This document shows positions 2,119 through 39,763 of a DNA stretch of 64,000 nucleotides, piece after piece. The stretch is from a virus. Made by a program: the position numbers and the translations under genes. The notes beneath the pieces were generated by a model. That model saw only the letters and a program-made list of their open reading frames with translations. It was not told the DNA's origin and made no database searches. The stretch is from IMG/VR virus record IMGVR_UViG_3300011116_000574, positions 36,658 to 100,657 of that record. One strand, written 5' to 3'. The stretch's first letter is position 1, and every line of letters begins with the position of its first letter.

Positions 2119-2447
2119 TACACTTCCTGCCAAATCATCATACTCTCAAACGAGTAACCATTTACTGTATTTTTAGTTAGGTCAATCTCTACCCACTCTG
2201 ACCAATTATCAAATGTGACTTTAGGATTTACGGCAAAGATACCATAACCTGTTTCATCAAGGATTTCATTTTGGATTAGGTGTGAAATAACCATACGAGT
2301 CCAATAAGAGTGGTCGCCTATTCGTGGTTGTGCGTGGCGAATTGCTTGGGCTAAATCGTGTTCCCAACTGTCTGCCCCCCAATGTGAATAAAGTGCGACT
2401 GCGTGGTCAGTTCCGTCATTGAATACAAAGGTTACTCTAGCACCCAT
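2118..2447 (-). CDS. hypothetical protein (MGAR...LYSHWG type)
   Basis: RBS and array promoter upstream. The MG-R...Y-HW-G pattern is recalled from phage early proteins. Confidence 0.75.
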   Translation of the reverse strand: MGARVTFVFNDGTDHAVALYSHWGADSWEHDLAQAIRHAQPRIGDHSYWTRMVISHLIQNEILDETGYGIFAVNPKVTFDNWSEWVEIDLTKNTVNGYSFESMMIWQEV

Positions 2448-2594
2448 AATTTTCTCTCTTTCGGTAGGTTGATAAATCAAGTGTAGCAGTCTTGTCTGAC
2501 ATTTTCAAGGATAATTCCAGAGATTTTTGAACATCTTCGTACTTGACAACCCCGCAGCAGCGGGGTATCCCGCCTTTCGGCGGGGCTTTAATGG

Positions 2595-2864
2595 TTATTC
2601 CCAGAAGTCCTGTATTTCAGACAAGTCGTTGATACTTTCAATGTTGGCTCGCTCATAGCATAGGTAAAGCGTATTTAGTAAAGCGTGACCAATCATAGAA
2701 GCGGTGTCATAAGAAGCCAAATCTGCTTCTGTTAGATAATCAAAGTCAAATTCTTTTTCTGTTTCTGATAAAGCAAATAGGTATTGCTCTACAAGAGTTT
2801 CAAAGTCAATGAACATCTTGCCCTCGTGAACCATTGAATTTAGTTCGCCGTCTGCTATAAACAT
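2595..2864 (-). CDS. hypothetical acidic protein
   Basis: Single-gene cassette with GAAAGGAAAG RBS. Confidence 0.75.
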   Translation of the reverse strand: MFIADGELNSMVHEGKMFIDFETLVEQYLFALSETEKEFDFDYLTEADLASYDTASMIGHALLNTLYLCYERANIESINDLSEIQDFWE

Positions 2865-2984
2865 TTCTTTCCTTTCGGTAGGTTATGTAATAATCTTAGC
2901 ACACATTACCGACATTTTCCAGAGAAATTTTAACTAATCGTAAATAAGCTGAAAAAGATCGGGGTAGCCCGAAGACCCAGTTTG

Positions 2985-3191
2985 TCAAACTGGGTCGCAG
3001 GTGGTGTAGAAAAATTGGATACTATCCGCAGGAACATAAATTATTTCATCACCTGTTTTTGTTTCAAAAGATAGTAATCCGTTTTCAATACGGAAAGCAT
3101 TGTCTGGGTGAACATCTGGGAACTCATAGGGGTTAGCAATTCCGTTTGGTTGTTCTTTGTAGACAATGTGTAAGTTAGTTTGAAATTCCAT
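2985..3191 (-). CDS. hypothetical protein
   Basis: ORF with GAGGA RBS. Confidence 0.7.
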   Translation of the reverse strand: MEFQTNLHIVYKEQPNGIANPYEFPDVHPDNAFRIENGLLSFETKTGDEIIYVPADSIQFFYTTCDPV

Positions 3192-3296
3192 TTAGTAGTC
3201 CTCTTTCGCTTCTGGTACACTAGCACCGCATAGCATACAGGTTGGGTTGGTTCTGTCTGTTACATTGACAATCGGGTGAACTTTACACTCTTTCAT
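3192..3296 (-). CDS. tiny Cys/His peptide (MKECKVHP...CMLCG)
   Basis: 34 aa translated by hand, fills the gap between whiB and the 2985-3191 ORF. Confidence 0.5.
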   Translation of the reverse strand: MKECKVHPIVNVTDRTNPTCMLCGASVPEAKEDY

Positions 3297-3498
3297 TTTT
3301 CAATAACGCCTTTCGCTCGTCACCGAGTAGACCGCCATAAATACCGTCTACACTTTCATTTGAGAGTGCGAACTCTAAGCACTCTGATTTTACAGGGCAA
3401 GCGTTACACAATGACAACGCCAACGCCCTATCTTTTAGTTTGGCACTAAAAAAGATTTCTGGGTCTGCCTCTAAGCAATTTGCCTTATCCTGAAACAT
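3283..3498 (-). CDS. whiB: WhiB-family Fe-S transcription factor
   Basis: CLEADPEIFF...CNACPVKSECLEFAL...GIYGG...ER gives four Cys plus the G[IV][WY]GG turn. Start MFQDK follows GAAAGG. Confidence 0.93.
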   Translation of the reverse strand: MFQDKANCLEADPEIFFSAKLKDRALALSLCNACPVKSECLEFALSNESVDGIYGGLLGDERKALLKNERV

Positions 3499-3656
3499 AA
3501 TCTGCCTTTCGTTTGTTGGTAATACTATTATGACACACGCCACCGACATTTTTGGTAGCGACACGCACAATTTCAGAGATTTTTTTGGGGCTTCGTAATT
3601 TGACAAACCCCGAAGATCGGGGTACCCCGATCCCCCACGAAGTGGGGGCGGGAAGG

Positions 3657-17325: not shown

Positions 17326-20300
17326 ATGTCATATGATTTACAAGTACTAAGAGATAATCCAATTGGTTATTGGTCATTCAATAATACCAATAAGGATATT
17401 ACTAGATATGCTAATACGGCTACTGTTAGTGGGTCTTATACAACCCCGCCGATTATTGCAAATGGCGGATATTCGCTAAAAGTAAATAGTTCTACTACTG
17501 CTACTATAACTAACACTGCTGGTAAATATGAATGCTTTTCCAATAACTATCAAAATAGAACCTTTACGATTGCTTTTTGGCTTAGCCTTAATAACCAATT
17601 AAATGGTTCTGGTGCTGGAACTTATACAAACGATCAACTTACCCTACTATCAATTAAAAACGGTGCCACAGTAATTGGTAAAATTGTATACGATTATAAG
17701 TCGAATACGGTTAGGTATACTTTTCCAGGAACAAATAACAAAGATTCTTATGCGGTCATTGATGATTTTGACAAGCAATATTACATAGTTGCAACATATT
17801 CTAATGGAAGTCATTCTATAAAAATTAATGGTAGAAATGGGTTTATTGGTTTGGTTAGCGATTTTTCAAATATGACATCAGCAACAAAAAGCAATATCTC
17901 CTTTGTCATTGCTGATACAAGTACCACATCAAACTTTCTTACAAATAGTTTAGCTTTTTACGACTATCAAATTTCAGATGAGCAAATAAAAAGACATATT
18001 CTTTGGGCAGGAAATGATGAAAAACCAAACTTTCAAGGCTCAATTTCTGCAAGCACATCCATCTTTACATTCTTAGAAGAAAATCAAGATTTAGGTTATG
18101 CAAAAACTATTTCTGGTCAAGATTTCCTAATATTGGGAGAGTTGGATAAATTAAATGTGACGGATTCTGGATTAACTCCATTAAAGTTAGACACCCCAAC
18201 ATTTAATACCAACTACGATAGTACCGCATCCTATACAATAAATAGTTCTTCTGGAATAAATTGGTCGGGATCTGCGGGAGTAGACATTAATTTCTTTCCA
18301 AATTATTTTAATATGACAACTGGATTTACTTTATATATGACAGTAAATAGAACTTCTACTGGAAGTTATAACGAATATTTATTTGGACTATCAAATGTAA
18401 ACGGACAAAGCATGTTCCTTGAGTATAATGTTCCAGATGGAAATACAAACTATTATTTAAAAATGTATGATTCTTATACTGGCTCTACCACAACCATTGT
18501 TAGTCTAGCTAGTGGTCAATCAGCATCTACCGCAAAAATTTCAAATGTTGCCGTACAATTTTCTGGAAGCCTAATTAATCTTTACACATCTGACAATTCT
18601 GGAGTAACAGCATCGTCTACATCTGGTTTACCCCTTAATATGAATCAGAATTCAATATTAACCTTGGGAAATAGTTATAATTCTCCAAAAAATTTATATT
18701 CTTATATAGAAGATTTTGGGGTAACAGATCAGTATTTTGCTAGTGTTACATCAATCCCCTTTGGCAGTGTTTCTAACTTTATCATGCCATTAACAGCATC
18801 AGCTAGTCCATTTCTTATTAAACAAAGAGGAACCTGGATACATCAAGTACCATCCGTAGTTATACCTTTTTATAATTTTTACGGAACCGTTTTTGACTGG
18901 AAAACAATGGATAACTGTCAGGTTCTTTACTCTGTTGATAATGGAAGCACCTACAACATTGTAAATAGGCATCAAACTGCAAGTTTATATAATACGCTTG
19001 GTGTTGCGGGTAATATTGCAGTAAAAGTTCAAATTGATACAGACTATGTGTTAGATCAAAAAAATCAATCCTTTAATAATTTTTATTACAATGTTTATGG
19101 TCCGATGAGTTTAATTTCTGATAATGAAATGTATACTCTGTCATCATCAACATCTAGCGTTAGCCCAAACCTAAGAATATCTAATGGAACTAATAATATT
19201 TTAGCAAGACAAAAAAACTTTGGCGTTAAATTTGGAGGAGAGTTGCCAACAAATGCTCTTATTACTGTTCCAACATCATCTTCTTATTCCGCCATTGAAA
19301 TGTGGTATAGACCAGATTTTATTCCAACTCAAACATTAAGAACAAATATCATTAAAAATCCATCTTTTGAAGTTACCCCAACTGCGAGTATGTTTATAAC
19401 TTATAATACAAATTATCCAGTAAGCACATCAACAGCATCCCCACTATTTAGAACTAGAAGCGTAACTCAAAATACAGGAACATTCCTAAATGCACAGATT
19501 AGAATTGGTTTTCATAGAACTAACTCAGTAGCCCTTCCAATATATTATTCTTGTGATCCTGGTCAAGCATATACTTTTTCTTTCTATATGTCAGACATAT
19601 TAATGCCATCTCCATCTATTACTGCAAGAATAAGATTTTATAATTCTGCTGCATCAGCAACAGTTCTTTCAACAACAACTTCAACTAGCACTATATCAAC
19701 AGCATCTTACACAAGGGTTTCTGTGACCGCAACTGCACCCACATCTATAACAGCGTCTTTAAACGGAAATTTAATATTTCCAGACTTTTTTTGTCCTACA
19801 AACACTACATCAAGTTATAGTGGTGGTAGATTCCAGGCAGATGGAATTTTATTAGAGGCAAGTCCAGCACTAAATGAATATTTTGACGGTTCGTTTACAG
19901 GTGCTTCTTGGTCGGGAACTGCAGACATTTCATCATCAAGCTTGCTATACGCCAGTCCAGTTCATATAATAAATAATACAATAGATCAAAAAATTAGCTC
20001 TAGTTCTATTGCAACCGCCCCAGCTATATACATAGATAATTTGGGTAAATTTAGATCTTTGGGTGGAACCTTATATATAAACGGTGCATCCGTAGTTGAC
20101 GGGTCATATTCTGCTAGTCAAAATGAGCTGTATCATTTAACTTTGGTTTTATCATCACCAACATCATCGGCTTTGTATTTAAATGGTGGTAATTTAGTAA
20201 TGAACTCTACAAGAAGTAAAGGTACATATGGATATCTACAATTTTGGAATAGTACCCCAACTGCAGCAGATATTTTAGATAGATATTCCCAGTTTGTTGG

Positions 20301-20391
20301 TAAAACAATAGTGTCAATTACCGACACAAATACAACTAAATTATACTCTGCCTTGTCGCCAGAATTATATATTATCACCAGTCTTGGCTAA
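17326..20391 (+). CDS. minor tail protein with LamG/concanavalin-like and carbohydrate-binding domains
   Basis: MSY...VLRDNPIGYW, NIIKNPSFE, YFDGS motifs. Confidence 0.7.
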   Translation: MSYDLQVLRDNPIGYWSFNNTNKDITRYANTATVSGSYTTPPIIANGGYSLKVNSSTTATITNTAGKYECFSNNYQNRTFTIAFWLSLNNQLNGSGAGTYTNDQLTLLSIKNGATVIGKIVYDYKSNTVRYTFPGTNNKDSYAVIDDFDKQYYIVATYSNGSHSIKINGRNGFIGLVSDFSNMTSATKSNISFVIADTSTTSNFLTNSLAFYDYQISDEQIKRHILWAGNDEKPNFQGSISASTSIFTFLEENQDLGYAKTISGQDFLILGELDKLNVTDSGLTPLKLDTPTFNTNYDSTASYTINSSSGINWSGSAGVDINFFPNYFNMTTGFTLYMTVNRTSTGSYNEYLFGLSNVNGQSMFLEYNVPDGNTNYYLKMYDSYTGSTTTIVSLASGQSASTAKISNVAVQFSGSLINLYTSDNSGVTASSTSGLPLNMNQNSILTLGNSYNSPKNLYSYIEDFGVTDQYFASVTSIPFGSVSNFIMPLTASASPFLIKQRGTWIHQVPSVVIPFYNFYGTVFDWKTMDNCQVLYSVDNGSTYNIVNRHQTASLYNTLGVAGNIAVKVQIDTDYVLDQKNQSFNNFYYNVYGPMSLISDNEMYTLSSSTSSVSPNLRISNGTNNILARQKNFGVKFGGELPTNALITVPTSSSYSAIEMWYRPDFIPTQTLRTNIIKNPSFEVTPTASMFITYNTNYPVSTSTASPLFRTRSVTQNTGTFLNAQIRIGFHRTNSVALPIYYSCDPGQAYTFSFYMSDILMPSPSITARIRFYNSAASATVLSTTTSTSTISTASYTRVSVTATAPTSITASLNGNLIFPDFFCPTNTTSSYSGGRFQADGILLEASPALNEYFDGSFTGASWSGTADISSSSLLYASPVHIINNTIDQKISSSSIATAPAIYIDNLGKFRSLGGTLYINGASVVDGSYSASQNELYHLTLVLSSPTSSALYLNGGNLVMNSTRSKGTYGYLQFWNSTPTAADILDRYSQFVGKTIVSITDTNTTKLYSALSPELYIITSLG

Positions 20392-22419: not shown

Positions 22420-24039
22420 ATGAATATTCAAAAAGCCACATGGCAAAATGGAGATCGCAAGATGAGTCTTGCATTCCCATTTGCTAAAGTAGATAAAGAA
22501 AATCGCACAGTATCTGGCTTTGCTACATTGGATAATGTAGACAAGCATGGTGATATTGTTACTTCAGATGCAAGTAAAGCTGCATTTGAAAGATTTCGCG
22601 GAAACATTCGTGAAATGCATCAACCAATTGCGGTAGGTAAAATCCTTTCTTTTAACGAAGAAGATTACTACGATGCTAATGAAGGTAAAAATTACAAAGG
22701 TGTATTTGTACAAGCATATATTTCAAAGGGTGCTCAGGATACTTGGGAAAAGGTTCTAGATGGCACCCTTACAGGTTTTTCAATAGGCGGAAATATTGTC
22801 ACAGCCTCTATGGAAAAGGGTGACGATGAGGCAGACGAAGAGCGTAGAGTTATTAAAGAGTATGACCTACACGAATTAAGTCTAGTTGACAATCCCGCAA
22901 ACCCACTTGCAAATGTTTTTTCAATTCAAAAGAGTGGTGATAGTTTAATTTTTAAAGGAATGGCAACAGAAATTGAAACAGAAAATGTCTTCTGGTGCGG
23001 AACAGACCAGGTTGCTACAGCTTATTCGGGTGAGACAAAGGACTGCAGCATTTGCGGTGACACGATGGACACCATTGGCTGGGTTGAAAAAAGCGATACA
23101 GAAAAGAATCTATCTATTCAAAAAGTAATCAATGGTTACTTTAAGAAAGACGATGCTCCAGGTTCAGTACATGGTCCAAATGGAACACTAGATTCAAGTT
23201 CAACACCACTTAATCCCGTTATTGATTCAGAGGAAACAATTAACTTGTATCCAGATCAGAACAACATTAGTACAACAAAGGCTGCTGTTGGAGTTGGAAG
23301 TTTTGTTACATGGAAATCTAGCGGTGGAAAAGCATATGGTAAAATTATAAGTATTAAATCAAAAGGAACAATTAAGGTTCCAGATAGCTCGTTTGAGATC
23401 ACAGCAGAAAAGGATGATCCAGCAGCACTAATTAGAATTTATGAGAAAACAGCCGATGGTTTCAAAGAAACCGACAAAAAGGTTGGTCATAAAGTAAGTA
23501 CCCTTAAGCCAGCAAAAGGCTCAAAGGCTAAAAATAAAATCAGCAAAGGAGGTAGTATCGTGACAGAAGAAAATCTAGAAACTCAGGAAGCTGAAGAAAT
23601 TAATGAAGTAGTTGAAGAAAGTGATGATGCAGCAATTGAGAAGGCTGCAGATGTTTCGGAAATAGAAGTCGATGAATTAGACTTTACTAAGATGGTTACA
23701 GACCTCAAAGACTTTGTTGGTGAAAAGCTTGAGAAGAGCGCAGAAAGCGCAAAAGATAGCACAACAGAATTTAAGAAAGCTCTAGAAGCAGAAACATCAG
23801 GTTTGATAAAGAAATTTGATGAACTTTCTGCTGAAAAAAATGAGCTGGCTAAATCTATTGATGCTCTAAATAACCTTGTTACAGAACTACAAAAGTCTCT
23901 TACAGAGACAAACGAAAGGGTCGCATCTTATGAGAGCGACACCGCAATTAAAAAGTCTGGTGAAGTTGACAAAACAACATCAGTAACAAGAGAAGATAAA
24001 TTTTGGCAAGGATCCTTCCTCGGAGTAAATGCCCTATAA
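22420..24039 (+). CDS. prohead protease/scaffold fusion (HK97 type)
   Basis: IREMH, GFSIGG, ELSLVDNPAN and a C-terminal coiled coil. Confidence 0.9.
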   Translation: MNIQKATWQNGDRKMSLAFPFAKVDKENRTVSGFATLDNVDKHGDIVTSDASKAAFERFRGNIREMHQPIAVGKILSFNEEDYYDANEGKNYKGVFVQAYISKGAQDTWEKVLDGTLTGFSIGGNIVTASMEKGDDEADEERRVIKEYDLHELSLVDNPANPLANVFSIQKSGDSLIFKGMATEIETENVFWCGTDQVATAYSGETKDCSICGDTMDTIGWVEKSDTEKNLSIQKVINGYFKKDDAPGSVHGPNGTLDSSSTPLNPVIDSEETINLYPDQNNISTTKAAVGVGSFVTWKSSGGKAYGKIISIKSKGTIKVPDSSFEITAEKDDPAALIRIYEKTADGFKETDKKVGHKVSTLKPAKGSKAKNKISKGGSIVTEENLETQEAEEINEVVEESDDAAIEKAADVSEIEVDELDFTKMVTDLKDFVGEKLEKSAESAKDSTTEFKKALEAETSGLIKKFDELSAEKNELAKSIDALNNLVTELQKSLTETNERVASYESDTAIKKSGEVDKTTSVTREDKFWQGSFLGVNAL

Positions 24040-29917: not shown

Positions 29918-32900
29918 GTGGTAAATCGTATTGACATTCAAGTTAATGCCACGGGAAACTTTGGTCAACTTCATGCTCAAATAGCGGAGTTAAAGGCTGC
30001 AGTTGCACAACTGCAGTCTAAACCACTTTTAGGAGATACTGGTAGGGCTACTGCTGCTCAACTTTCTCAAATACAAACACAGTTTGACAAGATGCTTTTG
30101 GCAACAAGAGCATTTAATGTTGAAACTGTAAAGATGTCAAACTCTATAGATAACTTTGGAAATAGATTACAGGCAGGAAAACTACACTTCTCTGAGTATG
30201 CAAGAATGTACCGTCAGACAATGAAGGGCATGCGTAACGAACTTGACGCACTTGCAGATTCACAAGCAAGAGTTGCAAAATCGGTTGTTCTTCCAGATGC
30301 ATTAAGAACTGGTTACGCTAGAGTAATTACAAATCTTACATCCGACCTTAAATCACTTAATGCTGCAGAAGAAGCAGCAATAATAAAAACAAAAGCTTTA
30401 AACTCTGTTATCCATGGAATGGGAACATCTTTGGTTAATATGGGTAAAAATACACAGTGGGCTGGTCGCCAGCTTACTGTTGGTCTTACCGTTCCAGTTG
30501 CAGCATTTGGCGCAATGGCTGCAAAAGTATTTAAAGATGTAAATACAGAACTTACAAGAATGCAGAGAATGTATGGTACTGGTTTATCTCTGCCTAGCGA
30601 ACAAGAAATAGCAAAAGTATCTACCGCAATTATAGATCTAAGTAAAAAAGTTGCAGAAAATATGGGTATTGCCCAAAAAGAAACTGTTACTGCTGCTGCT
30701 AATTTTGCTGCTGTTGGTACAACTGGAGATGCACTTATTGTAGCAACAGAACAGGCTATGCGACTTTCAAAACTTGGTGCCGTTAATGCTGACACCGCAC
30801 AAAAAACAATTACATCTTTGCAGACAACATTTAGGGTAGGCACTAAAGATGTTGCTGAAGCAGTAAACTTTTTGAATGATATTCAAAAACAGACATCCAC
30901 AGACTTACAAGATCTAACCGATGCAATTCCTCGTGTTGGTCCAATTGTATCTCAACTTGGTGGAACATATAAAGACACCGCAGTTATGATGGTTGCCATG
31001 AAAGAAGCTGGTGTTCCAGCAGCACAATCTGCAAACGCAATCAAATCCGCAGTTGCGTCTATGATTGGTCCAACTCGTCAAGCCAGGGATGAGTTTGAAA
31101 AGTATGGAATTAGTCTAACAAAAATTAAAGATGATACTCAGGGTAATCCAATTAAAATGATTGAAGCACTTCAGACTTCTTTGCAAAAATTATCACCACT
31201 TGTTCAAGCTCAGTTAATTGAAAAACTATTTGGTAAGTTTCAGTTTGCTCGTGTGACTGCACTTATTAACAATCTTGGTGCTGCAGGAAGTCAGACACAA
31301 AATGCTTTTCTAGTAGCAAAAGCTAGTGTTTCAGAACTTGCAAGACTAGCAGACTCAGAAATGAAAATTGCTACTGAATCAACAACAGCAAAGTGGTCTA
31401 GAGCACTAGAAGGATTTAAATCAACCTTGCTTCCTTTGGGTGAAAAGTTTATGAAATTTGGAACCAAAATCTTAGACTTCTTCTCTAAAGTAATGCATTT
31501 CTTAGATAGATTTAAACCTTTAGAAAACCTCTTAGTTAATGTTTTGGGTGGAGCAGCAATAGTTGGTCCTATTCTTATGCTAGTTGGTTTGTTTGGAAAC
31601 CTTGCTGGTAACATAATTAAGGGTGTAAACTACTTCAGAATGTTTGCTCAAGGGGCTAAAGATGGCGGAATTTTAGCTGGCTTTAAGAGCATGGCTAACT
31701 TCTTTGAAATGATTAACATTGAAACACTTGCATCTTCAAAAAATATGGATGGTCTTACAACATCTACTCAAAAAACCGTAGAGGCTTTTGCTGTACTTAA
31801 TCAAGAAATTGGAATTATGACCAGAAGTCTTAATGAAGTATTTGCTCGTAGCACTAGAATGCCAATAGTTGCATCTCCATATGCACAACAAACATTGGCA
31901 CAATTACAGACAATAAATCCCGAATATGTTGGCGGAGTAACAAAGGGACTAGAAAGACCACACATGTTCCCTGCTGCAAGACTTTGGGAAGGTTGGGCTG
32001 CAAATGAAGGAAACATACAGGGCAGAGTGCCAACGCTAAACGCCTTTTTACAAAATAGAGCACTTAATCCAACAATGGAGGCTCAGGAAAACTTTATGAG
32101 AGGTGGAATGCCAGAACAATGGGGTGCTCCAGTTCCATCAGGTGGTTTAGCTGCTCAACTTCAAAAAGAATACGGAACCGAAGATGTTATTCACGGTCCA
32201 AAATTTGGTCTTTCAAAAGAAGATGTTTACTCAAGAGGTTTTCAAAAAATAGAAAACATTAGGAGTAAAATACTTGACGAAAGAATAGCTGCAGATAGTA
32301 AAGTAGCAATAGAGCTTGCAAAAATTGACGCATTGCCAGAAGAACAAAAAGTTCAAGCTTTAACACAAATTATTCAGAAAGTTACATTTACTGAAGAACA
32401 ATATTTCAACAACCTAATTGAATCATTAGTTCAAACTCAAGCTTTACTTACCGCTCCAGAAGAAATGCTAAAGGCTGTAGACACAAAGGTTAAAACAGTC
32501 CTTGCTGACCCAACAATTGAAAATAAGTCTGTTGCTATTCAAGCAATACTAACCGAGTTTAACGCAGACTTTAAACTTCTTGGAGGAACAGTAGTTGAAG
32601 AAATAACTAAATATAGAACTTTAGTTCAACAGACAATACTCAGTACCACATCCACTTTTGAAACTGCCATAGCAGCAGCTAATTTTAGGGCTGGTATAGT
32701 TGCTAGTGCCGAAATGTTTGGCGGGGTAAGAAAAGGTGCTTTAGGAAGATTTGTCAGTATGGACAAACAAGCTTTATCACAATCAATATTAATGGCAAGA
32801 GATATTCCAAAAGGTTTCCAAACTGGTGGAGCAATTCATGCACAAGACGGTGTTTGGGTTCCAGGAACTGGCTCTGGAGATAGAGTTCCTGCAATGCTTG

Positions 32901-35900
32901 AGCCAGGAGAATTTGTTGTTAATCGTAATGCTGCTAAACAATATGGCGGGTTACTAGAACATTTAAACTGGAATGCTGCTCCAAGATTTGGAACTGGTGG
33001 AACTCCTAGTCCTACATCTGTTGGAATTAGAGGATATCAAAATGCTGGAGATGTAGAAAAGCCTAGGGTTAAAGCTTGGGTACCAAAAGATTTACTTGGC
33101 TTATCTAAAGGAGAAAACTTTTTTGCTCGCGACATGTATTCTCCAGGAAGCCAATTTCGAAGAATATTGTATGGTCCGATTTTAGATCAATTAAGAAATC
33201 AAGGCTATAAAGATGATGTTATTGAAAGAATTAAAAAAAGTTTTGACTCAGACAGAAATTTAAGATTATATGAGGATAGGTCTGCTTTATCAGAAGCACT
33301 TTCATCAGTAATTAGAAGAGGTAATCCATATGGAATAGACATAAGGGCTTTTTCAGAGGATGCTCGTGGAAGAATTATGGCAACAATTGAAAACGAAAGA
33401 CTTAGAACACACGAAGTTCATGATTTCAAATACTTTGACCCTAATGCACCAGTAAGGTTTTCACCAACAAGAGGCATGCCATCAATATTTAAACCTCTAA
33501 GAAAATTGAGTTTTGATGAAGCATATGGAGGAGATATAGGTTGGGTTAGAAAGCTAGTCCCAAGTCTAGCTGAAACATATATGTTAGCCCCATGGAAAGC
33601 CGATGATTATTTATTAGAAAAGCATGGGGCGCATATACTCTCTACAGCTCGTACACCACGCATAACTGTTGCTCAAAAAGGCGGTGGAATTCCAGGATAT
33701 CAAAGCGGATTAACAGTCCCAAGTATGGCATCTTTAAATAGAGAAGAACAGCAAGCTTTGATGGAAGAATATATTCAAAAAGCCCTACGCCCATCAAGTG
33801 CATTAAGTTTGTTACAAGAAGAAATTTTTTCTGCTGTTAGCCCATCTCAATTAGAATTGATACAAAAAGGTTATGGACATGAAGTTTTGCAATACAATTC
33901 AAATCTTGCAAAAATATTAGAACAGTACACTTTTAATGAAAAATCATTTGTTCTTCGACCAGGATATACTCCGCAAAGAGAGAGCTTTAACCTTTTCAAT
34001 ACATTGGGTAAAAATGAAAGATTCCATATGGGCATGAGCAAAACTCAATTTGAAACTTGGCAACCAACATCAATGTTTTCTACTAGCGAAAGGTCTCCTT
34101 TATTTACTAGAACTTTGGCTCAGGCTATCAAAGAGCAGGGCAAGGGAATTGGAAGTATTGGAGTTGTTCCAGAAGAACTAAGTTTAAGTCCTTTTAGTGA
34201 AAAAATGTATCAGAATTTAAGAAGACGGGGAATGGGAATAGAAGTTACAGGTAACGAGCCAGACTTTAGATCAACCCTATACGAAACAAATGATATTGAT
34301 TTAGAAGAATCAAGAAATACAACAAGACATATTTTGGATAGATTGTTGAGAAGAATAACAACTGACAAACTTTACAATAACTCTTTTACTTATAATTCTC
34401 AAAAACCTATTAGTGGTCAGCCTGGTGCTTATAGCATTAGTCGTGGTTTTGTGGATCAAATGGATGTTCAACATAGAATTCCAGAATTAGAAGCAAGAAC
34501 AACCATGATGAGATTCTTGAGACAAGGTATGTTTAAGCAAAAGGGTGGTGGAATTCCAGGATATGAGCAAGGTGGTGGTCCTACATGGATGGCTAGAGGC
34601 AATCCATATACAGAAGCACAGTTCCAACAATCTTTAGAATCTTGGATTAGACCAGTTCTTCACGGAATGGCTCCTTGGAATAATCCAGAAAAAGAAACTT
34701 ATCGACCAATGGGAGAATTATACAAAGGTTTCTACAGAGACATATTTAATGATCAGATGAGAAATATTGGTAGACAAGATCTTCTAAGAGCAATGGTTGT
34801 AGATAATGTTAAGGGCGGAGCAAACATGCACCCTTGGCTTACAAATATGGTAAATGCAGCAGAAGATCGCTATTACCCACCAGGCTTTCAGGGAATTAGG
34901 GTTCCAGCTATGGAAAATATTCAAGGTCCATGGGTAGCAAAAACAACAAGACCATTTACATCCTTTACTGACATTAAGGATACCAGCTTCTTGAAGAAAA
35001 GATTTATGCCAGACTTTGGAGATAAAAGATTCTGGAATGCAATGAATCGCGGAAACAAACTTCCATTTTTCTTGCATGCAATGACTGGACCAGAAACTAT
35101 GGGTCTGCCAGTTTCAAAATTATTTGCTGGACAAACTTACTATGGAAATGAAGGCGAGTATGTTTTACCACAAGGTCAAAAATTCCCAATGACGGGATAC
35201 AGTAGTGACCTTGCTACTAGATTACCAATAGTCCATTCTATTGCTCCAGGCTCAACTAAGATGATTGGCGGGATGAGAATTCCTGTTGCTCAAACTGGCG
35301 GTATGATTCCAGGATTCCAAGAGGGATACACAGATTATCTTGGCTCTAAAATTACAGGTCCGCTAGGATATGCTGTTCAGAGCGGAATTACGGGGACATA
35401 TAATCTAGAAACTAGCACAGGACCACAAACAGCTTATCTGAAGCAAATGTTTGAGCCTGGAATGTTTGATTATGGCGAAGCTCCAGTTAATAAAAGAGAG
35501 ATGGTTATGGAAGCATTCCTTAACCAATTACAAAGAGGCTTGGGTGGGTCTCAGGCTGCTATAGATCAAGTGTATTCAAGATTAATTGATCCATCTGGCG
35601 AAGGAGCATTAAGAGAAACCTCTGTTCTAAGGTCAAAGTTTTTGGAAGGTTTTGAAACTTACAAGAGTTCTGGATTATCAACAGCAGTTGGCGTAGAAGA
35701 TTTTAAGGGCAGAATAGATCCTCAACAAACATTCAAAAGGTTTATGGAGTCAGCACTTATTGGTAATGAAGATCTCCATGATGAAAACTTTGGCTATGTA
35801 GGCAAAACACCAACTGTTGTTGATAGTGGTATAACCGCTATACACAAACTATTAAAGGGTTATAGTGGATTTGATAATACTATATCTGAGCATGTAAACC

Positions 35901-38900
35901 TTGGAAATATGCACGATATGCGTAAAGCTGCAATGGTGGCAAAAACTTTACTTCAAGAGCAGGGAATCAGTATTGAAGAATTTAGTAAAACTCATATTGA
36001 TAGTTTAAGGTCAAAACTTTCAGAGGAACTTATTCATAACGCATTATTAAAAGCAACTGGCGGAGTCCCCGAATTAATGACCGTGTTTGATGAACTTACG
36101 CAAAAAAGCTATGGAGCAAATTTTGTTCCATCAATCACTAAAGTTTTGCACAAAAGACTTGATAGTTTAGCAAGGTTTGCAGATCCCACAAATCCTATGT
36201 CTGGAGCATTACCAAAATCAACTACACCACCACTTGCATCTAACATTATGAAAGGTTTTATGACCACTAGACTTCAAACTGGTGGAAGTGCTTGGGTTCC
36301 AGGATTTGGCGAGGGCGATAGGGTTCCAGCCATGCTTGAACCTGGTGAGTATGTAATTAATAAAAAAGCTGCTAAAGCATATGGCGGTTTACTAGAAGAT
36401 ATTAACTGGAATCAAGCCCCTAGATTTGAAACTGGAAATGAAGTTGGCAATAGACAAACTAGAAGAGGAAATGTTCCAATTGCTGTTACAAAAAACCAAG
36501 TTGGGGCAAATATTAAAGAATTTAATAATATGATGGCGGGTGTTCCAAGAATTGGATCAACATTAATTGCTGCAGGACAATCATTAAAAGTTTCAATTCT
36601 TAATGGAGCGCAAGCCTTAAAACAATCTGCAATAGCAACCAGAGAAGCCAACATGACTAGAGGAATGATTGCAAAAAATGAACTTAGAGGATTAAAGGAT
36701 AGTGTTGTTAATGGTGTAAGAAGTGGTGTTCTTGGTGCCGCTAAAGCTCCTGGAGCAATGATGAGAGGAATTGGAAGCTTTGGATATAATTCAATAGCAT
36801 CAATTAAAGAGGGTGGTAGAAACTTTGGTACGGGCTTTATGGGAGCAAGGCAAATGCAACCGATCCTTGGCGCAGACGGAAAGCAAGTATTTGATGAAAA
36901 AGGAAATCCTCAAAGCCGTTATGCAAAATTTAGTGAAGCAAAAGGTGTCGGTGGAAAGCTTGGCTATGCTTTAGGAAGACAATCTAGACCAGGAATGGGT
37001 TCTATGATTGGTGGTCAAATGCTTGGTATGGCTGCCATGCAAATGGCTGGAGGAATGCAGGAGGGTACTGCAAAATCTGCACTGTCTGGTGCAGGAATGG
37101 GTGCAATGCTTGGCGGTATGACCCCACTTGGTCCAATTGGTGGTGCTGCTATAGGAGCAATTGCATCGGGCGCATATAGCATGTATAAGCAGCATGAACA
37201 AAAACTTAAAAATGCAGCAACTCTAGTCAAAGACTCTTTAAATATGAGTGCTATTGCAATGCAACACTTAGGTGTTCAGGCTAGAGATTTTTCAAATATT
37301 ATGATTGATTCTTCTGGAAAAGCAACAAAAGCTACATCAGAATTTCAAGTTCAGGTTAATGATTATAAAAATGCTCAAGATGAAGAAACAAAAACTGCCG
37401 TTCAAGGAATGAAAGAAAAATTAGAATCGGGAGATATTTCTGGACTAAAAGAAATTATAAAAACAAGAGTTGCAACACAAATGAGCAGCCTTGTCAATCC
37501 AAATGATCCAGAAGCTAGAAAGAAAGTAATTCAAGACAACAAGGCTTTTGTTGCTTCATCTGGAGCAGGAATTGCAACACAAAGAGAAATTTTTTCTGGA
37601 ATTTCTTCAAAAACAACTCCAGAGTCAGCTATAAAACAACAACTAAAGCAGCTAGGTCTTTTTGACTTTAATTCTGTACAGAAAACTCAAATGATATTAC
37701 CAGCAGGAGTAAACAGGAAAAAATATCTTGAAGAGCATCCTTTAGCTGGACAAGATTTAACTATTGCAAATTTAGCAGCGGGTACAAATATGGGTGCTAA
37801 TACTACTCAAAAAATACAAATGACTAAAACCGCTAGTTCAATAACTTTTGACGAATCAAAAATGCAAGCTTTAATTACACAACTTCAAACAAAAACAGAT
37901 CCAATGCAACTTGGGAAAATGCTTGGACCATTAAATAAAGCAAGCGGAGATGTAAAATTGTTTAAAGAATCTATGAGCACTGTTGGTGTTGGTGGTGCTG
38001 GTTGGCAAAAACTTTTAGAAAGTGTAAAGAAGATGGATCCAGCTTTAGCAAAACTAGATCAACAATACGGAAGATATATTACAGATGGTACTCAAATAAT
38101 TAGAATAAATAATCTTATGTCTGCTGGAATGACACAATTAAATATTTCTCAACAAAGGCAAATTAATACTAATCCCAACTTAATTTCTGGATTAGAAGCT
38201 CAGTATAGTGCACAAAGTGCCGTAAGTGGCGGAATAGCAGATTGGATTTCAAATGCAGCACAGTATGACGCACAACAAAATGATCAAGCAGATGCTGCAA
38301 ATAAAGCAGCAGAAGCTTTACAAAGTCAAAAGGATCACATAAACAATTTAATTGATGGTCAAAACAATTATATTAAGTGGCAAAATAAAGCTATTGATGG
38401 TGTGCAAAAAGAAATGGATGCAAGAAACAAACTTGCAGATACACAAAATAAAGAAATCGAAAGAGAAAGAACACTAGCAGACCTAAAAGACTCTGTAACG
38501 GCTGCAAGAGCTTCTGGAAACTTACTTCAAATGGCAAGTGCTCAAAGCAAGTATAACGAAGAATTAGCTAAACAAGAAGAAGCTAAGAAAAAAGAAGCAG
38601 CTGATGCAGCCGATGAAAAGAAAATTGCAGCCTATAAAGCAAATATTGATAAAGCAAGTGCTCAAATTGAAAAGTATAATAAAAAACTTGAAGATCTGGA
38701 TAAAGCTTCAAATGACACTACAAAAACACAATCTAAGAACTGGAACACTGTTTCTGGAAAAGCGCATAAAGCAGAAAACGCAGTTAATGATGTTGGCACA
38801 GCCATTAAAGATGTTGGAAGTGGTGGGACATGGACTAGCCTAAAAGATTTCCAAGAAAAAGTTCTTGGTCAAAAAGGTATGAAGGGTAAATTAGAGGCTG

Positions 38901-39763
38901 CTGGATTATCTTCAGATCAAGTAAGAGATAAGATAAAAGAGCTATACACAAGTTTTGGGGGAAGTAAACAGGCAAAAGCAAATGAAGCGTTAGTTTCTAC
39001 TAAAAATGCAATCCTTGATATTAAAGATGCATCAGAAAAAGCTTTAGCTGTTCAACTTTTCACCAATATGTACACAGCAGACCCAACTGGAAATGTTAAA
39101 GACATGTCAAAGAGAGCAATGGCTGCTGCACATCAATTTACAGCTGCTACAAGTAATATGCCAACATCTCCTCCCACCCCAACACAAGACATGAAAAATG
39201 GTGCTGGTGACGGAAATTGGTATCAAGATCCAAAAGAAAAAGATTATTACTGGTTGTGGAAAGCAAAGGATAAAAAATTCTTTGAGACTCCTTCAGACAA
39301 AGCTGAGATGAAAGAAAAGGAAAGATTTGGATGGCACGACTATAGCGGTGGTAAATGGGGCGCAACAATTGAAGGAAAAGCTTTTGGTGGAATAATACAT
39401 GCAGCTACTGGTATAGGACCAGTTATGGGTCCAGGTGGACCAAGAGATGATTTAATTCCCGCCATGCTTTCAAATGGTGAGTATGTAATTCAAGCATCAT
39501 CTGTAAATAAATACGGAAAGACTATGATGGATGCAATTAATGGAGGAAACTTTTCTCCTAGATACGCAACTGGTGGTATAATGAGATCATATAGTGTTGG
39601 CGGGGATATTAATAACAATAGTGTTCTTCCAGCCCCACAGTACAATGTTAACATTGTTGTAAATGGCGCAAATGCAAGCGCAGATGATATAGCCGATATG
39701 GTTGCAACTAGATTTAGAAGAGAGACAGAAAGTATGTCTTCAGGTAGGAGTTTGAGAGCATAA
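29918..39763 (+). CDS. tape measure protein with internal cargo domains
   Basis: 3281 aa. TP901-type core (aa ~180-500), three PAML-x-x-GE[FY]V motifs, position after the chaperones. Confidence 0.92.
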   Translation: MVNRIDIQVNATGNFGQLHAQIAELKAAVAQLQSKPLLGDTGRATAAQLSQIQTQFDKMLLATRAFNVETVKMSNSIDNFGNRLQAGKLHFSEYARMYRQTMKGMRNELDALADSQARVAKSVVLPDALRTGYARVITNLTSDLKSLNAAEEAAIIKTKALNSVIHGMGTSLVNMGKNTQWAGRQLTVGLTVPVAAFGAMAAKVFKDVNTELTRMQRMYGTGLSLPSEQEIAKVSTAIIDLSKKVAENMGIAQKETVTAAANFAAVGTTGDALIVATEQAMRLSKLGAVNADTAQKTITSLQTTFRVGTKDVAEAVNFLNDIQKQTSTDLQDLTDAIPRVGPIVSQLGGTYKDTAVMMVAMKEAGVPAAQSANAIKSAVASMIGPTRQARDEFEKYGISLTKIKDDTQGNPIKMIEALQTSLQKLSPLVQAQLIEKLFGKFQFARVTALINNLGAAGSQTQNAFLVAKASVSELARLADSEMKIATESTTAKWSRALEGFKSTLLPLGEKFMKFGTKILDFFSKVMHFLDRFKPLENLLVNVLGGAAIVGPILMLVGLFGNLAGNIIKGVNYFRMFAQGAKDGGILAGFKSMANFFEMINIETLASSKNMDGLTTSTQKTVEAFAVLNQEIGIMTRSLNEVFARSTRMPIVASPYAQQTLAQLQTINPEYVGGVTKGLERPHMFPAARLWEGWAANEGNIQGRVPTLNAFLQNRALNPTMEAQENFMRGGMPEQWGAPVPSGGLAAQLQKEYGTEDVIHGPKFGLSKEDVYSRGFQKIENIRSKILDERIAADSKVAIELAKIDALPEEQKVQALTQIIQKVTFTEEQYFNNLIESLVQTQALLTAPEEMLKAVDTKVKTVLADPTIENKSVAIQAILTEFNADFKLLGGTVVEEITKYRTLVQQTILSTTSTFETAIAAANFRAGIVASAEMFGGVRKGALGRFVSMDKQALSQSILMARDIPKGFQTGGAIHAQDGVWVPGTGSGDRVPAMLEPGEFVVNRNAAKQYGGLLEHLNWNAAPRFGTGGTPSPTSVGIRGYQNAGDVEKPRVKAWVPKDLLGLSKGENFFARDMYSPGSQFRRILYGPILDQLRNQGYKDDVIERIKKSFDSDRNLRLYEDRSALSEALSSVIRRGNPYGIDIRAFSEDARGRIMATIENERLRTHEVHDFKYFDPNAPVRFSPTRGMPSIFKPLRKLSFDEAYGGDIGWVRKLVPSLAETYMLAPWKADDYLLEKHGAHILSTARTPRITVAQKGGGIPGYQSGLTVPSMASLNREEQQALMEEYIQKALRPSSALSLLQEEIFSAVSPSQLELIQKGYGHEVLQYNSNLAKILEQYTFNEKSFVLRPGYTPQRESFNLFNTLGKNERFHMGMSKTQFETWQPTSMFSTSERSPLFTRTLAQAIKEQGKGIGSIGVVPEELSLSPFSEKMYQNLRRRGMGIEVTGNEPDFRSTLYETNDIDLEESRNTTRHILDRLLRRITTDKLYNNSFTYNSQKPISGQPGAYSISRGFVDQMDVQHRIPELEARTTMMRFLRQGMFKQKGGGIPGYEQGGGPTWMARGNPYTEAQFQQSLESWIRPVLHGMAPWNNPEKETYRPMGELYKGFYRDIFNDQMRNIGRQDLLRAMVVDNVKGGANMHPWLTNMVNAAEDRYYPPGFQGIRVPAMENIQGPWVAKTTRPFTSFTDIKDTSFLKKRFMPDFGDKRFWNAMNRGNKLPFFLHAMTGPETMGLPVSKLFAGQTYYGNEGEYVLPQGQKFPMTGYSSDLATRLPIVHSIAPGSTKMIGGMRIPVAQTGGMIPGFQEGYTDYLGSKITGPLGYAVQSGITGTYNLETSTGPQTAYLKQMFEPGMFDYGEAPVNKREMVMEAFLNQLQRGLGGSQAAIDQVYSRLIDPSGEGALRETSVLRSKFLEGFETYKSSGLSTAVGVEDFKGRIDPQQTFKRFMESALIGNEDLHDENFGYVGKTPTVVDSGITAIHKLLKGYSGFDNTISEHVNLGNMHDMRKAAMVAKTLLQEQGISIEEFSKTHIDSLRSKLSEELIHNALLKATGGVPELMTVFDELTQKSYGANFVPSITKVLHKRLDSLARFADPTNPMSGALPKSTTPPLASNIMKGFMTTRLQTGGSAWVPGFGEGDRVPAMLEPGEYVINKKAAKAYGGLLEDINWNQAPRFETGNEVGNRQTRRGNVPIAVTKNQVGANIKEFNNMMAGVPRIGSTLIAAGQSLKVSILNGAQALKQSAIATREANMTRGMIAKNELRGLKDSVVNGVRSGVLGAAKAPGAMMRGIGSFGYNSIASIKEGGRNFGTGFMGARQMQPILGADGKQVFDEKGNPQSRYAKFSEAKGVGGKLGYALGRQSRPGMGSMIGGQMLGMAAMQMAGGMQEGTAKSALSGAGMGAMLGGMTPLGPIGGAAIGAIASGAYSMYKQHEQKLKNAATLVKDSLNMSAIAMQHLGVQARDFSNIMIDSSGKATKATSEFQVQVNDYKNAQDEETKTAVQGMKEKLESGDISGLKEIIKTRVATQMSSLVNPNDPEARKKVIQDNKAFVASSGAGIATQREIFSGISSKTTPESAIKQQLKQLGLFDFNSVQKTQMILPAGVNRKKYLEEHPLAGQDLTIANLAAGTNMGANTTQKIQMTKTASSITFDESKMQALITQLQTKTDPMQLGKMLGPLNKASGDVKLFKESMSTVGVGGAGWQKLLESVKKMDPALAKLDQQYGRYITDGTQIIRINNLMSAGMTQLNISQQRQINTNPNLISGLEAQYSAQSAVSGGIADWISNAAQYDAQQNDQADAANKAAEALQSQKDHINNLIDGQNNYIKWQNKAIDGVQKEMDARNKLADTQNKEIERERTLADLKDSVTAARASGNLLQMASAQSKYNEELAKQEEAKKKEAADAADEKKIAAYKANIDKASAQIEKYNKKLEDLDKASNDTTKTQSKNWNTVSGKAHKAENAVNDVGTAIKDVGSGGTWTSLKDFQEKVLGQKGMKGKLEAAGLSSDQVRDKIKELYTSFGGSKQAKANEALVSTKNAILDIKDASEKALAVQLFTNMYTADPTGNVKDMSKRAMAAAHQFTAATSNMPTSPPTPTQDMKNGAGDGNWYQDPKEKDYYWLWKAKDKKFFETPSDKAEMKEKERFGWHDYSGGKWGATIEGKAFGGIIHAATGIGPVMGPGGPRDDLIPAMLSNGEYVIQASSVNKYGKTMMDAINGGNFSPRYATGGIMRSYSVGGDINNNSVLPAPQYNVNIVVNGANASADDIADMVATRFRRETESMSSGRSLRA

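Follow-up and report, generated by a model that had tools for sequence, protein, structure and literature searches.

We describe here the tape measure protein (TMP) of an uncultured lake phage, encoded in a 64,000-nucleotide window which forms the right-hand 64 kb of the 100,657-base IMG/VR virus record IMGVR_UViG_3300011116_000574. Within this protein of 3281 amino acids (aa), two copies of a module of about 70 aa flank four segments (residues 964-2181 in total) that are themselves divided by a repeated joint, and related TMPs gain, lose and replace whole segments exactly at these joints. One of the segments is a protein-kinase-like domain by predicted fold and conserved catalytic residues, and another is probably an ADP-ribosyltransferase (ART). 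We lean, with modest confidence, towards the reading that multiplied slots of hook and joint in this TMP carry captured enzymes, which would be ejected from the tail to act in the host cytoplasm.

Modules, joints and exchangeable segments

The product of the gene is a real tape measure protein. It showed matches to PF10145 at residues 241-439 (E 8e-29, 101 bits vs. a cut-off of 33; Pfam) and to TIGR01760 (E 8e-25, 88 bits vs. a cut-off of 29; NCBIfam), and its open reading frame (ORF) was assigned to phrog_10030, tail length tape measure protein (E 1e-99; PHROG). Judged by ORF order and PHROG names, the gene is located between the tail tube/chaperone genes and the distal tail/hub genes, with portal, protease, capsid and Ig-domain tail genes upstream and a gene for a 1499-aa minor tail protein downstream.

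An earlier note on this stretch had described two near-identical modules of about 55 aa (32813-33001 and 36272-36436) around four segments that are unrelated to each other and unlike TMP sequence, with a recurring linker at 33023, 33671, 34535 and 35288. All of these positions were correct and both modules are present, but "near-identical" was an overstatement (71% identity in protein, 78% over 148 nt in DNA) and a third copy, 50 residues from the C-terminus and directly ahead of a putative plug, had been missed (Table 1). The linker is not a separate element either, as the joint Q-x-GG-x-[VI]PG-[FY]-x-x-G corresponds to the module's N-terminal half, which a comparison of RLQTGGSAWVPGFGEG from module 2 with VAQTGGMIPGFQEG from joint 4 illustrates. 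Joints 2, 3 and 4 are strong, with 27 nt in common and DNA identities of 93% and 74%, whereas the first linker, GIRGYQNAG at about 33023, is weak in comparison. A second form of the joint, PR[FY]xTGG, is found at the end of the module. With both forms counted, the TMP contains the motif at seven places, and none of the 22 other structural ORFs in the window has it.

The description of the four segments was borne out. Profile-profile comparison (hhalign) gave probabilities below 1% for all six pairs, and the segments contain less alanine than the flanking TMP sequence (4-7% vs. 12%) and more aromatic residues (8-13% vs. 5-6%). We also considered the possibility that a degenerate complete module closes each segment and rejected this, since the segment tails gave no significant match to the module hidden Markov model (HMM) and contained only recurring short words (VPAM, GEYV) and a 23-nt DNA match at 83%. 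The same architecture was present on independent contigs from several metagenomes and is therefore not an assembly artefact.

A search of 1.84 billion representative proteins with the cargo region (1090 aa between modules 1 and 2; phmmer) returned ten hits, namely nine giant TMP-like proteins and one fragment of 169 aa, to which 90% clusters and viral or metagenome contigs added a few further relatives. Neither the cargo region nor the ART-like copy of a distant TMP (L010, see below) matched any of 50,697 phage records (blastn, tblastn). Alignment of the relatives' TMPs agreed with the earlier proposal of a swappable set, because segment number and identity vary while joints and modules persist. 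The slot after the window-type core and module 1 is occupied by segment 1 in two proteins (P0002 and P0009) and by unrelated segments of 230-340 aa in five others, the replacements including those in P0012, P0013, P0004 and P0005; in P0009, segment 1 stands between two modules and the slot is otherwise empty. Segment 2 was found in all window-type relatives with 38-93% identity, segment 3 is missing from P0005, and the copy number of segment 4 ranges from one to three per protein. P0005 further carries the hybrid joint KQKGGGIPG-FTEGYTDYLG, which begins as joint 3 (left half) and continues as joint 4 (right half). Such a hybrid is the expected scar of a deletion between joints and thus indicates that the joints act as recombination points, the role suggested before for the GG linkers.

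Sequence identity showed a mosaic pattern as well. In comparison with P0004 it amounted to 21%, 42%, 90% and 30% for segments 1 to 4 and to 29% for the middle region between modules 2 and 3, the least conserved part of the TMP; in comparison with P0002 it was 95% for segments 3 and 4 and 53% for the middle region. A second clade, whose N-terminal core is about 33% identical, has a module, an ART-like copy, a variable stretch and a kinase-like copy in that order. Longer relatives (3570-4885 aa; P0013, P0004, P0003; L005 at about aa 1938-3273) possess an extension with further kinase-like copies, and the repeated joint of this extension differs, reading roughly YGSWWSAIxDSSxRxKGFWGSGxLHxxxNP[FY]VxLGRxxGY.

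The bracketing module is a widespread and already described TMP element, which the earlier note had missed together with the published precedents. A profile of the three copies, searched against PDB sequences, matched the TMP of mycobacteriophage Douge twice (aa 961-1025 and 1416-1463, E 2.5e-16) and the TMP of Pseudomonas phage JBD30 once (aa 1020-1067, E 0.005). Residues 1022-1066 of the JBD30 TMP were predicted by its authors to be a hook and equated with the C-terminus of T5 pb2* (PMC11445458), which keeps the TMP anchored in the baseplate hub after opening of the hub and departure of the C-terminal fragment (PMC10038345). Equated in this way via JBD30, module copy 3 places a hook of the T5 pb2 type before the C-terminal plug of the window TMP. 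The final 50 residues are 90-98% identical in relatives whose middle region reaches just 29-53%, and by analogy they are a probable plug seated in the baseplate hub. We found the module in 413 cultured phage records, every one under an annotated TMP (tblastn). These were mostly actinophages, with Gordonia (133), Mycobacterium (107), Arthrobacter (34) and Corynebacterium (16) as hosts, and also included phages of Burkholderia, Vibrio and Brevundimonas. Between its two modules Douge showed an NlpC/P60 match above the Pfam cut-off; a cultured phage, one whose virion has been solved, thus already has a module-bounded enzyme slot.

Kinase-like and ADP-ribosyltransferase-like segments

Among the four segments, segment 4 allowed the clearest functional prediction. 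Its motifs comprise K1842, E1865, the catalytic loop GNEDLHDEN (D1952, N1957) and DSG (D1969), the latter two at 35762-35830. We aligned eleven copies from seven proteins and then nine rows with identities down to 16%. A Gly-rich turn, Lys, Glu, G-[ND]-x-D-x-x-x-x-N and a following Asp were conserved with the spacing of protein kinases; G1949, D1952, N1957, D1969 and E1865 were invariant in nine copies of 16-79% identity, and K1842 was invariant in a seven-row alignment.

Structure prediction for segment 4 alone, based on the nine rows, gave a predicted local distance difference test (pLDDT) score of 61 and a predicted template modelling (pTM) score of 0.69, with pLDDT values of 70-89 over residues 67-300. 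The top 49 Foldseek matches in the PDB were all kinases (CtkA, PI4K, LepB, HipA, CotH, PI3K; E 4e-3 to 2e-2). VIA-align, a search that does not depend on Foldseek, gave Z-scores of 9.9 for CtkA, 9.8 for MavQ, 9.7 for CotH, 9.4 for PI4KIIa, 8.8 for HipA and 8.6 for Fam20. About 40 of the 50 listed rows were kinases, and ten different atypical kinases reached Z 9.9-8.2 over 190-230 aligned residues. Together, model and alignments identify segment 4 as a protein-kinase-like domain with a predicted bilobal fold of the atypical-kinase type and a conserved active site.

A closer assignment was not supported by family searches. HipA_C (PF07804) matched the catalytic loop of segment 4 (35711-35800) with E 0.013 and 11 bits, the only hit to this family genome-wide, and matched the catalytic loop in P0003 with E 3.9e-4 and 20.6 bits. 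Alignment of the segment-4 profile with E. coli HipA covered 15 columns within the catalytic loop only (hhalign). Language-model features of segment 4 fell into LepB_N-type clusters, and a LepB_N search of the genome gave no hit. Against PDB sequences the profile, like the cargo region itself, returned chance-level rows only, and when the profile was used to look for homologues that stand alone or are of intermediate length, a single TMP fragment was the only result. As all sequence matches were below curated cut-offs, segment 4 lies outside every defined family, HipA_C included, while fold and active site place it within the kinase superfamily.

Viral structural matches of segment 4 included tailed-virus PI3K/PI4K proteins as well as phage proteins of large size with ART, MuF or portal annotations, whose payload types agree with those of the window TMP. 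Two BFVD entries of 1340 and 1479 aa, A0A6B9L6W7 of Mycobacterium phage Onyinye and A0A4D6E245 of Gordonia phage GodonK, share the segment 4 kinase fold. Both phages are cultured actinophages and one of the two proteins is annotated as an ADP-ribosyltransferase. These proteins may be head-delivered counterparts of the segment 4 cargo and are accessible to experiment.

Segment 3 contains the motifs TTRPFTSFT (S1682) and GNEGEYVLPQG (E1745 and E1747, at 35150-35158). F-x-x-S-F and G-x-N-E-x-E-x-V-L-P-x-G were invariant in copies down to 27% identity, and the E-x-E with its hydrophobic residues and Pro/Gly turn (E1745, E1747, V, L, P, G) was invariant in six copies. The nearest language-model clusters were phage ADP-ribosyltransferases of PF03496 (score 0.94, 152-162 shared features), which we take as a lead only; a Pfam search of the genome gave no PF03496 hit. 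In a relative, the E-x-E stretch showed a Scabin-like match below the cut-off (E 0.1-0.17), and the segment-3 profile gave chance-level rows only against PDB sequences. The Arg (TTR) is located only 3-4 residues before F-T-S-F-T, whereas in the L010 copy FRG precedes SFST by about 47 residues. We consider it more likely than not that segment 3 has an ART fold. The earlier claim that two segments carry enzyme motifs was supported for segment 4 and stays at the level of a lead for segment 3.

The distant TMP just mentioned (L010:734-1921, IMGVR_UViG_3300032328_000712) carries an ART-like copy with the canonical layout FRG ... SFST ... DEKEWVL. In the same TMP two kinase-like domains, with GNADTHPGN and RGDSDLQPDN, follow this copy.

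Table 1. Features of the tape measure protein and their positions in the window.
Feature	Position	Strand	Residues (aa)	Basis or remark
Tape measure protein gene	29918..39763	+		single ORF, 3281 aa
Hydrophobic hairpin in N-terminal core	31520..31630	+	535-571	Kyte-Doolittle 19-residue window up to 2.3
Module copy 1 (joint-core-joint)	32807..33025	+	964-1036	module HMM E 5e-31; ends PRFGTGG, then weak joint GIRGYQNAG
Segment 1	33050..33667	+	1045-1250	most variable slot; homologous only in P0002 and P0009
Joint 2	33671..33709	+		AQKGGGIPGYQSG
Segment 2	33719..34531	+	1268-1538	no family match
Joint 3	34535..34579	+		KQKGGGIPGYEQGGG
Segment 3, probable R-S-E ADP-ribosyltransferase-like	34583..35287	+	1556-1790	conserved motifs, language-model neighbours
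Joint 4	35288..35326	+		AQTGGMIPGFQEG
Segment 4, protein-kinase-like	35327..36256	+	1804-2113	conserved catalytic residues, predicted fold
Module copy 2	36257..36460	+	2114-2181	module HMM E 3e-34
Ala/Gln/Lys-rich TMP-type (middle) region	36461..39397	+	2182-3160	composition like N-terminal core; internal repeat
Module copy 3	39398..39610	+	3161-3231	module HMM E 8e-33; ends in PRYATGGIMRSY
C-terminal 50 residues	39611..39760	+		after hook and joint, as in T5 pb2C

The middle region also contains a Gly/Met-rich stretch (about 36983-37190, + strand, aa about 2356-2425) with an internal 33-nt repeat. It looks like a glycine-zipper membrane segment, and a hydropathy scan did not flag it. The hydrophobic hairpin of the N-terminal core is a candidate membrane-inserting segment.

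Ejection of the segments and competing explanations

According to established knowledge, the lumen of the tail is occupied by a trimer of the TMP, which leaves ahead of the DNA with its C-terminus first (PMC10038345, PMC13033339). We propose that in the window TMP the usual C-terminal layout of hook module, joint and plug was multiplied, with two additional hook modules and three additional joints of half-module size opening slots in mid-protein. Four unrelated domains would have been captured in this way: an atypical kinase-like domain, a probable R-S-E ADP-ribosyltransferase and two others without assigned function. As parts of the TMP trimer the domains would be unfolded or stretched in the tail lumen, in three copies per virion, and would exit the tail before the DNA, refold and work in the host cytoplasm. 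The plug would leave first, then module 3, then the Ala/Gln-rich region that includes the Gly/Met-rich stretch, and after it module 2. The kinase would come next and the ART-like segment behind it, ahead of segment 2, segment 1 and module 1, and the N-terminal core including the hydrophobic hairpin would be last. Kinases depend on ATP and ADP-ribosyltransferases on NAD+, so the central part of the TMP should reach the cytoplasm. Precedents for delivery into the cell, from which we infer it here by analogy, are T5 (PMC10038345) and gp96 of Thermus phage P23-45, a 5,002-aa TMP with a fused RNA polymerase that was found in virions and, 5 min after infection, on phage DNA in the cell (PMC10770324).

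The joints might in addition be processing sites like that of T5 pb2, releasing the domains at tail assembly or ejection. T5 pb2, which has the one TMP cleavage site mapped so far, is cleaved after R1127 and both fragments remain in the tail (PMC10038345). The sequence at this cut, FVPR followed by AEGGMMYPGVSY (R1127, then AEGGMMYPG), resembles the end-of-module joint SPRYATGGIMRSY (SPRYATGGIM) as well as AQTGGMIPGF of joint 4. By this analogy proteolytic cleavage at the joints is plausible.

Several points weigh against delivery of active enzymes as proposed here. The module HMM did not detect T5 pb2, so the link to its cleavage site is a short motif resemblance, and no processing peptidase family was matched in the window TMP at E up to 1 (Pfam) or in five relatives at E up to 0.1. 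For segment 4, the N-lobe of the model (residues 1-66) had pLDDT below 50, and the best Z of 9.9 barely exceeds the 7-8 usual for models without a true match; as a Z near 10 is little above background, the kinase argument rests on the uniformity of the match list together with the conserved catalytic residues. All Pfam kinase and ART matches remained under the curated cut-offs, which is 30.5 bits in the case of HipA_C. Segment 3 of the window is without about 43 residues that the L010 copy has between the Arg and S-T-S, and could be a reduced or inactive form; folded jointly with segment 4 from 11 rows it reached a pLDDT of about 30, with 35 for the pair. Segments 1 and 2 are without an assignable function, as neither matched Pfam, PHROG, NCBIfam or PDB sequences. 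A virion would deliver just three copies of each enzyme. Finally, the phage is uncultured, and delivery, cleavage and enzyme activity are inferred.

Alternatively, the inserted domains could work at the cell envelope while the phage penetrates it, rather than in the cytoplasm, in the manner of the T5 pb2C peptidase and of the NlpC/P60 domains in mycobacteriophage TMPs. The NlpC/P60 domain of Douge sits in the same module-bounded slot, T5 pb2C is muralytic (PMC10038345), and segments 1 and 2, having no assigned function, are possibly wall-active. This explanation is nevertheless improbable in our view, as no segment matched a hydrolase family (Pfam, PHROG, NCBIfam), as the predicted kinase fold of segment 4 retains an intact ATP/Mg site, and as segment 3 looks NAD-dependent, neither cofactor being present outside the cytoplasm.

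It is just as doubtful that the segments mainly provide length, which at about 1.5 Å per residue would give a tail of about 490 nm, or function in assembly, with enzyme-like features that are non-catalytic relics. TMP length sets tail length, as is established for lambda, and each TMP residue is expected to lengthen the tail; the sub-threshold family matches and the stretch missing from the ART-like segment of the window would also fit. On the other hand, the catalytic residues are invariant at 16-35% identity, also between paralogous copies within one protein, and the enzyme-like segments are better conserved against P0002 than the ruler region (95% vs. 53%). Four different non-helical sequences would moreover be unnecessary for length alone. 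The least probable explanation is that the enzymes work late in the producing cell, where the TMP is made in large amounts and has yet to be threaded into tails, that they might modify phage or host proteins there, and that they are present in the virion incidentally: late genes are strongly expressed and T4 ModA and ModB act without injection (PMC5512222), but fusion to a chaperone-unfolded and tube-stretched protein would be an odd expression route, other phages fuse the same payload types to head-delivery carriers (MuF, portal), and the P23-45 precedent is one of action after ejection.

Ejection of captured enzymes into the cytoplasm is the reading that we retain for this TMP. A wider version of it, in which hook-joint repeats are a general cassette system of actinophage and related TMPs, the joints are cut at assembly, and free unfolded enzymes are stored as a stack in the lumen and fired via the TMP channel into the cytoplasm before the DNA, is possible but in our opinion unlikely. 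It would turn the siphovirus tail tube into a device for protein injection, and nucleotide-dependent enzymes among the cargo would then directly show that the central part of the TMP gets into the cytoplasm.

Host, known systems and implications

The virus record is about 81% complete and has a GC content near 37%. It contains two WhiB-family genes, one in the window (3283-3606, - strand) and one outside it (G000:C1:23199-23372), with E 1.9e-18 and 2.1e-11. The WhiB genes and the distribution of the module among actinophages point to an actinobacterial host, in line with the earlier guess, and the GC content points to a freshwater lineage; the host is thus probably a low-GC freshwater actinobacterium. 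Two further ORFs of the window showed matches over a part of their length. Directly 5' of the portal gene, an ORF of 1021 aa (17326-20391, + strand) has as its sole match a PHROG of unknown function over the first 290 residues, and could be a head-associated multidomain protein. The prohead protease ORF (22420-24039, + strand) encodes 539 aa, and its protease match is confined to residues 1-244.

TMP-embedded wall hydrolases, one TMP-fused RNA polymerase and multi-enzyme virion proteins are already known. Within the literature searchable here, we found no paper on kinase or ART cassettes in TMPs. P23-45 gp96 resembles the window TMP in being a giant TMP with a cytoplasm-acting enzyme type in the same polypeptide. 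It has one enzyme at its N-terminus, whereas the window TMP has four mid-protein segments between repeated hooks and joints, with different enzyme classes and cassette exchange. T5 pb2 and the JBD30 TMP share the hook ahead of a C-terminal plug, and in T5 pb2 the fragment past the cut, which bears an enzyme motif, is the first to be expelled (PMC10038345). T5, however, has one hook, one joint and a small wall peptidase, in contrast to three hooks, seven joints and kinase and ART-like cargo in the window. Among mycobacteriophage TMPs with embedded wall-hydrolase motifs, Douge gp16 (PDB 8ZDO; PMC13033339) has the same module twice around an enzyme domain, and the host phylum is probably the same. 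Its single slot contains a peptidoglycan hydrolase acting outside the membrane, while the four slots of the window TMP include nucleotide-dependent enzyme types.

Polyvalent proteins combine several conflict-type enzyme domains in one virion polypeptide, with ART as the commonest domain, a kinase clade and recombinational variability (PMC5512222), and MuF-VIP2 fusions have been described in Microbacterium phages (PMC7302621). The window TMP joins a kinase-fold domain to a probable ART and to two non-TMP segments, and thus probably likewise unites two or more conflict-type domains in one virion polypeptide. It differs in its carrier, as polyvalent proteins use head (MuF, portal) or conjugation carriers and usually include a processing metallopeptidase (MPTase), the hub of the class, whereas the window TMP gave no peptidase match; tape measure proteins are not mentioned in the polyvalent-protein paper (PMC5512222). 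Sle1-type effectors of actinobacterial contractile injection systems (PMC13277306) also show exchangeable domains on a TMP-related chassis, but they are cargo of the bacterium's own tail-like particles with one C-terminal domain, and not a working phage TMP.

The pairing of a kinase with an ADP-ribosyltransferase matches the payloads of head-delivered polyvalent proteins, and this suggests common manipulations of the host in the first minutes that are achieved by two delivery routes. Where the TMP of a siphovirus goes after ejection is an unsettled question, on which ATP- and NAD-dependent enzyme types argue for partial entry into the cytoplasm. If our reading is true, the tail lumen would stand beside the head of the phage as a second way by which effector proteins made beforehand are brought in. 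The grammar of modules and joints would then be a simple finder of such cargo in metagenomes, and proteins could be loaded into phage tails with it as a natural scaffold.

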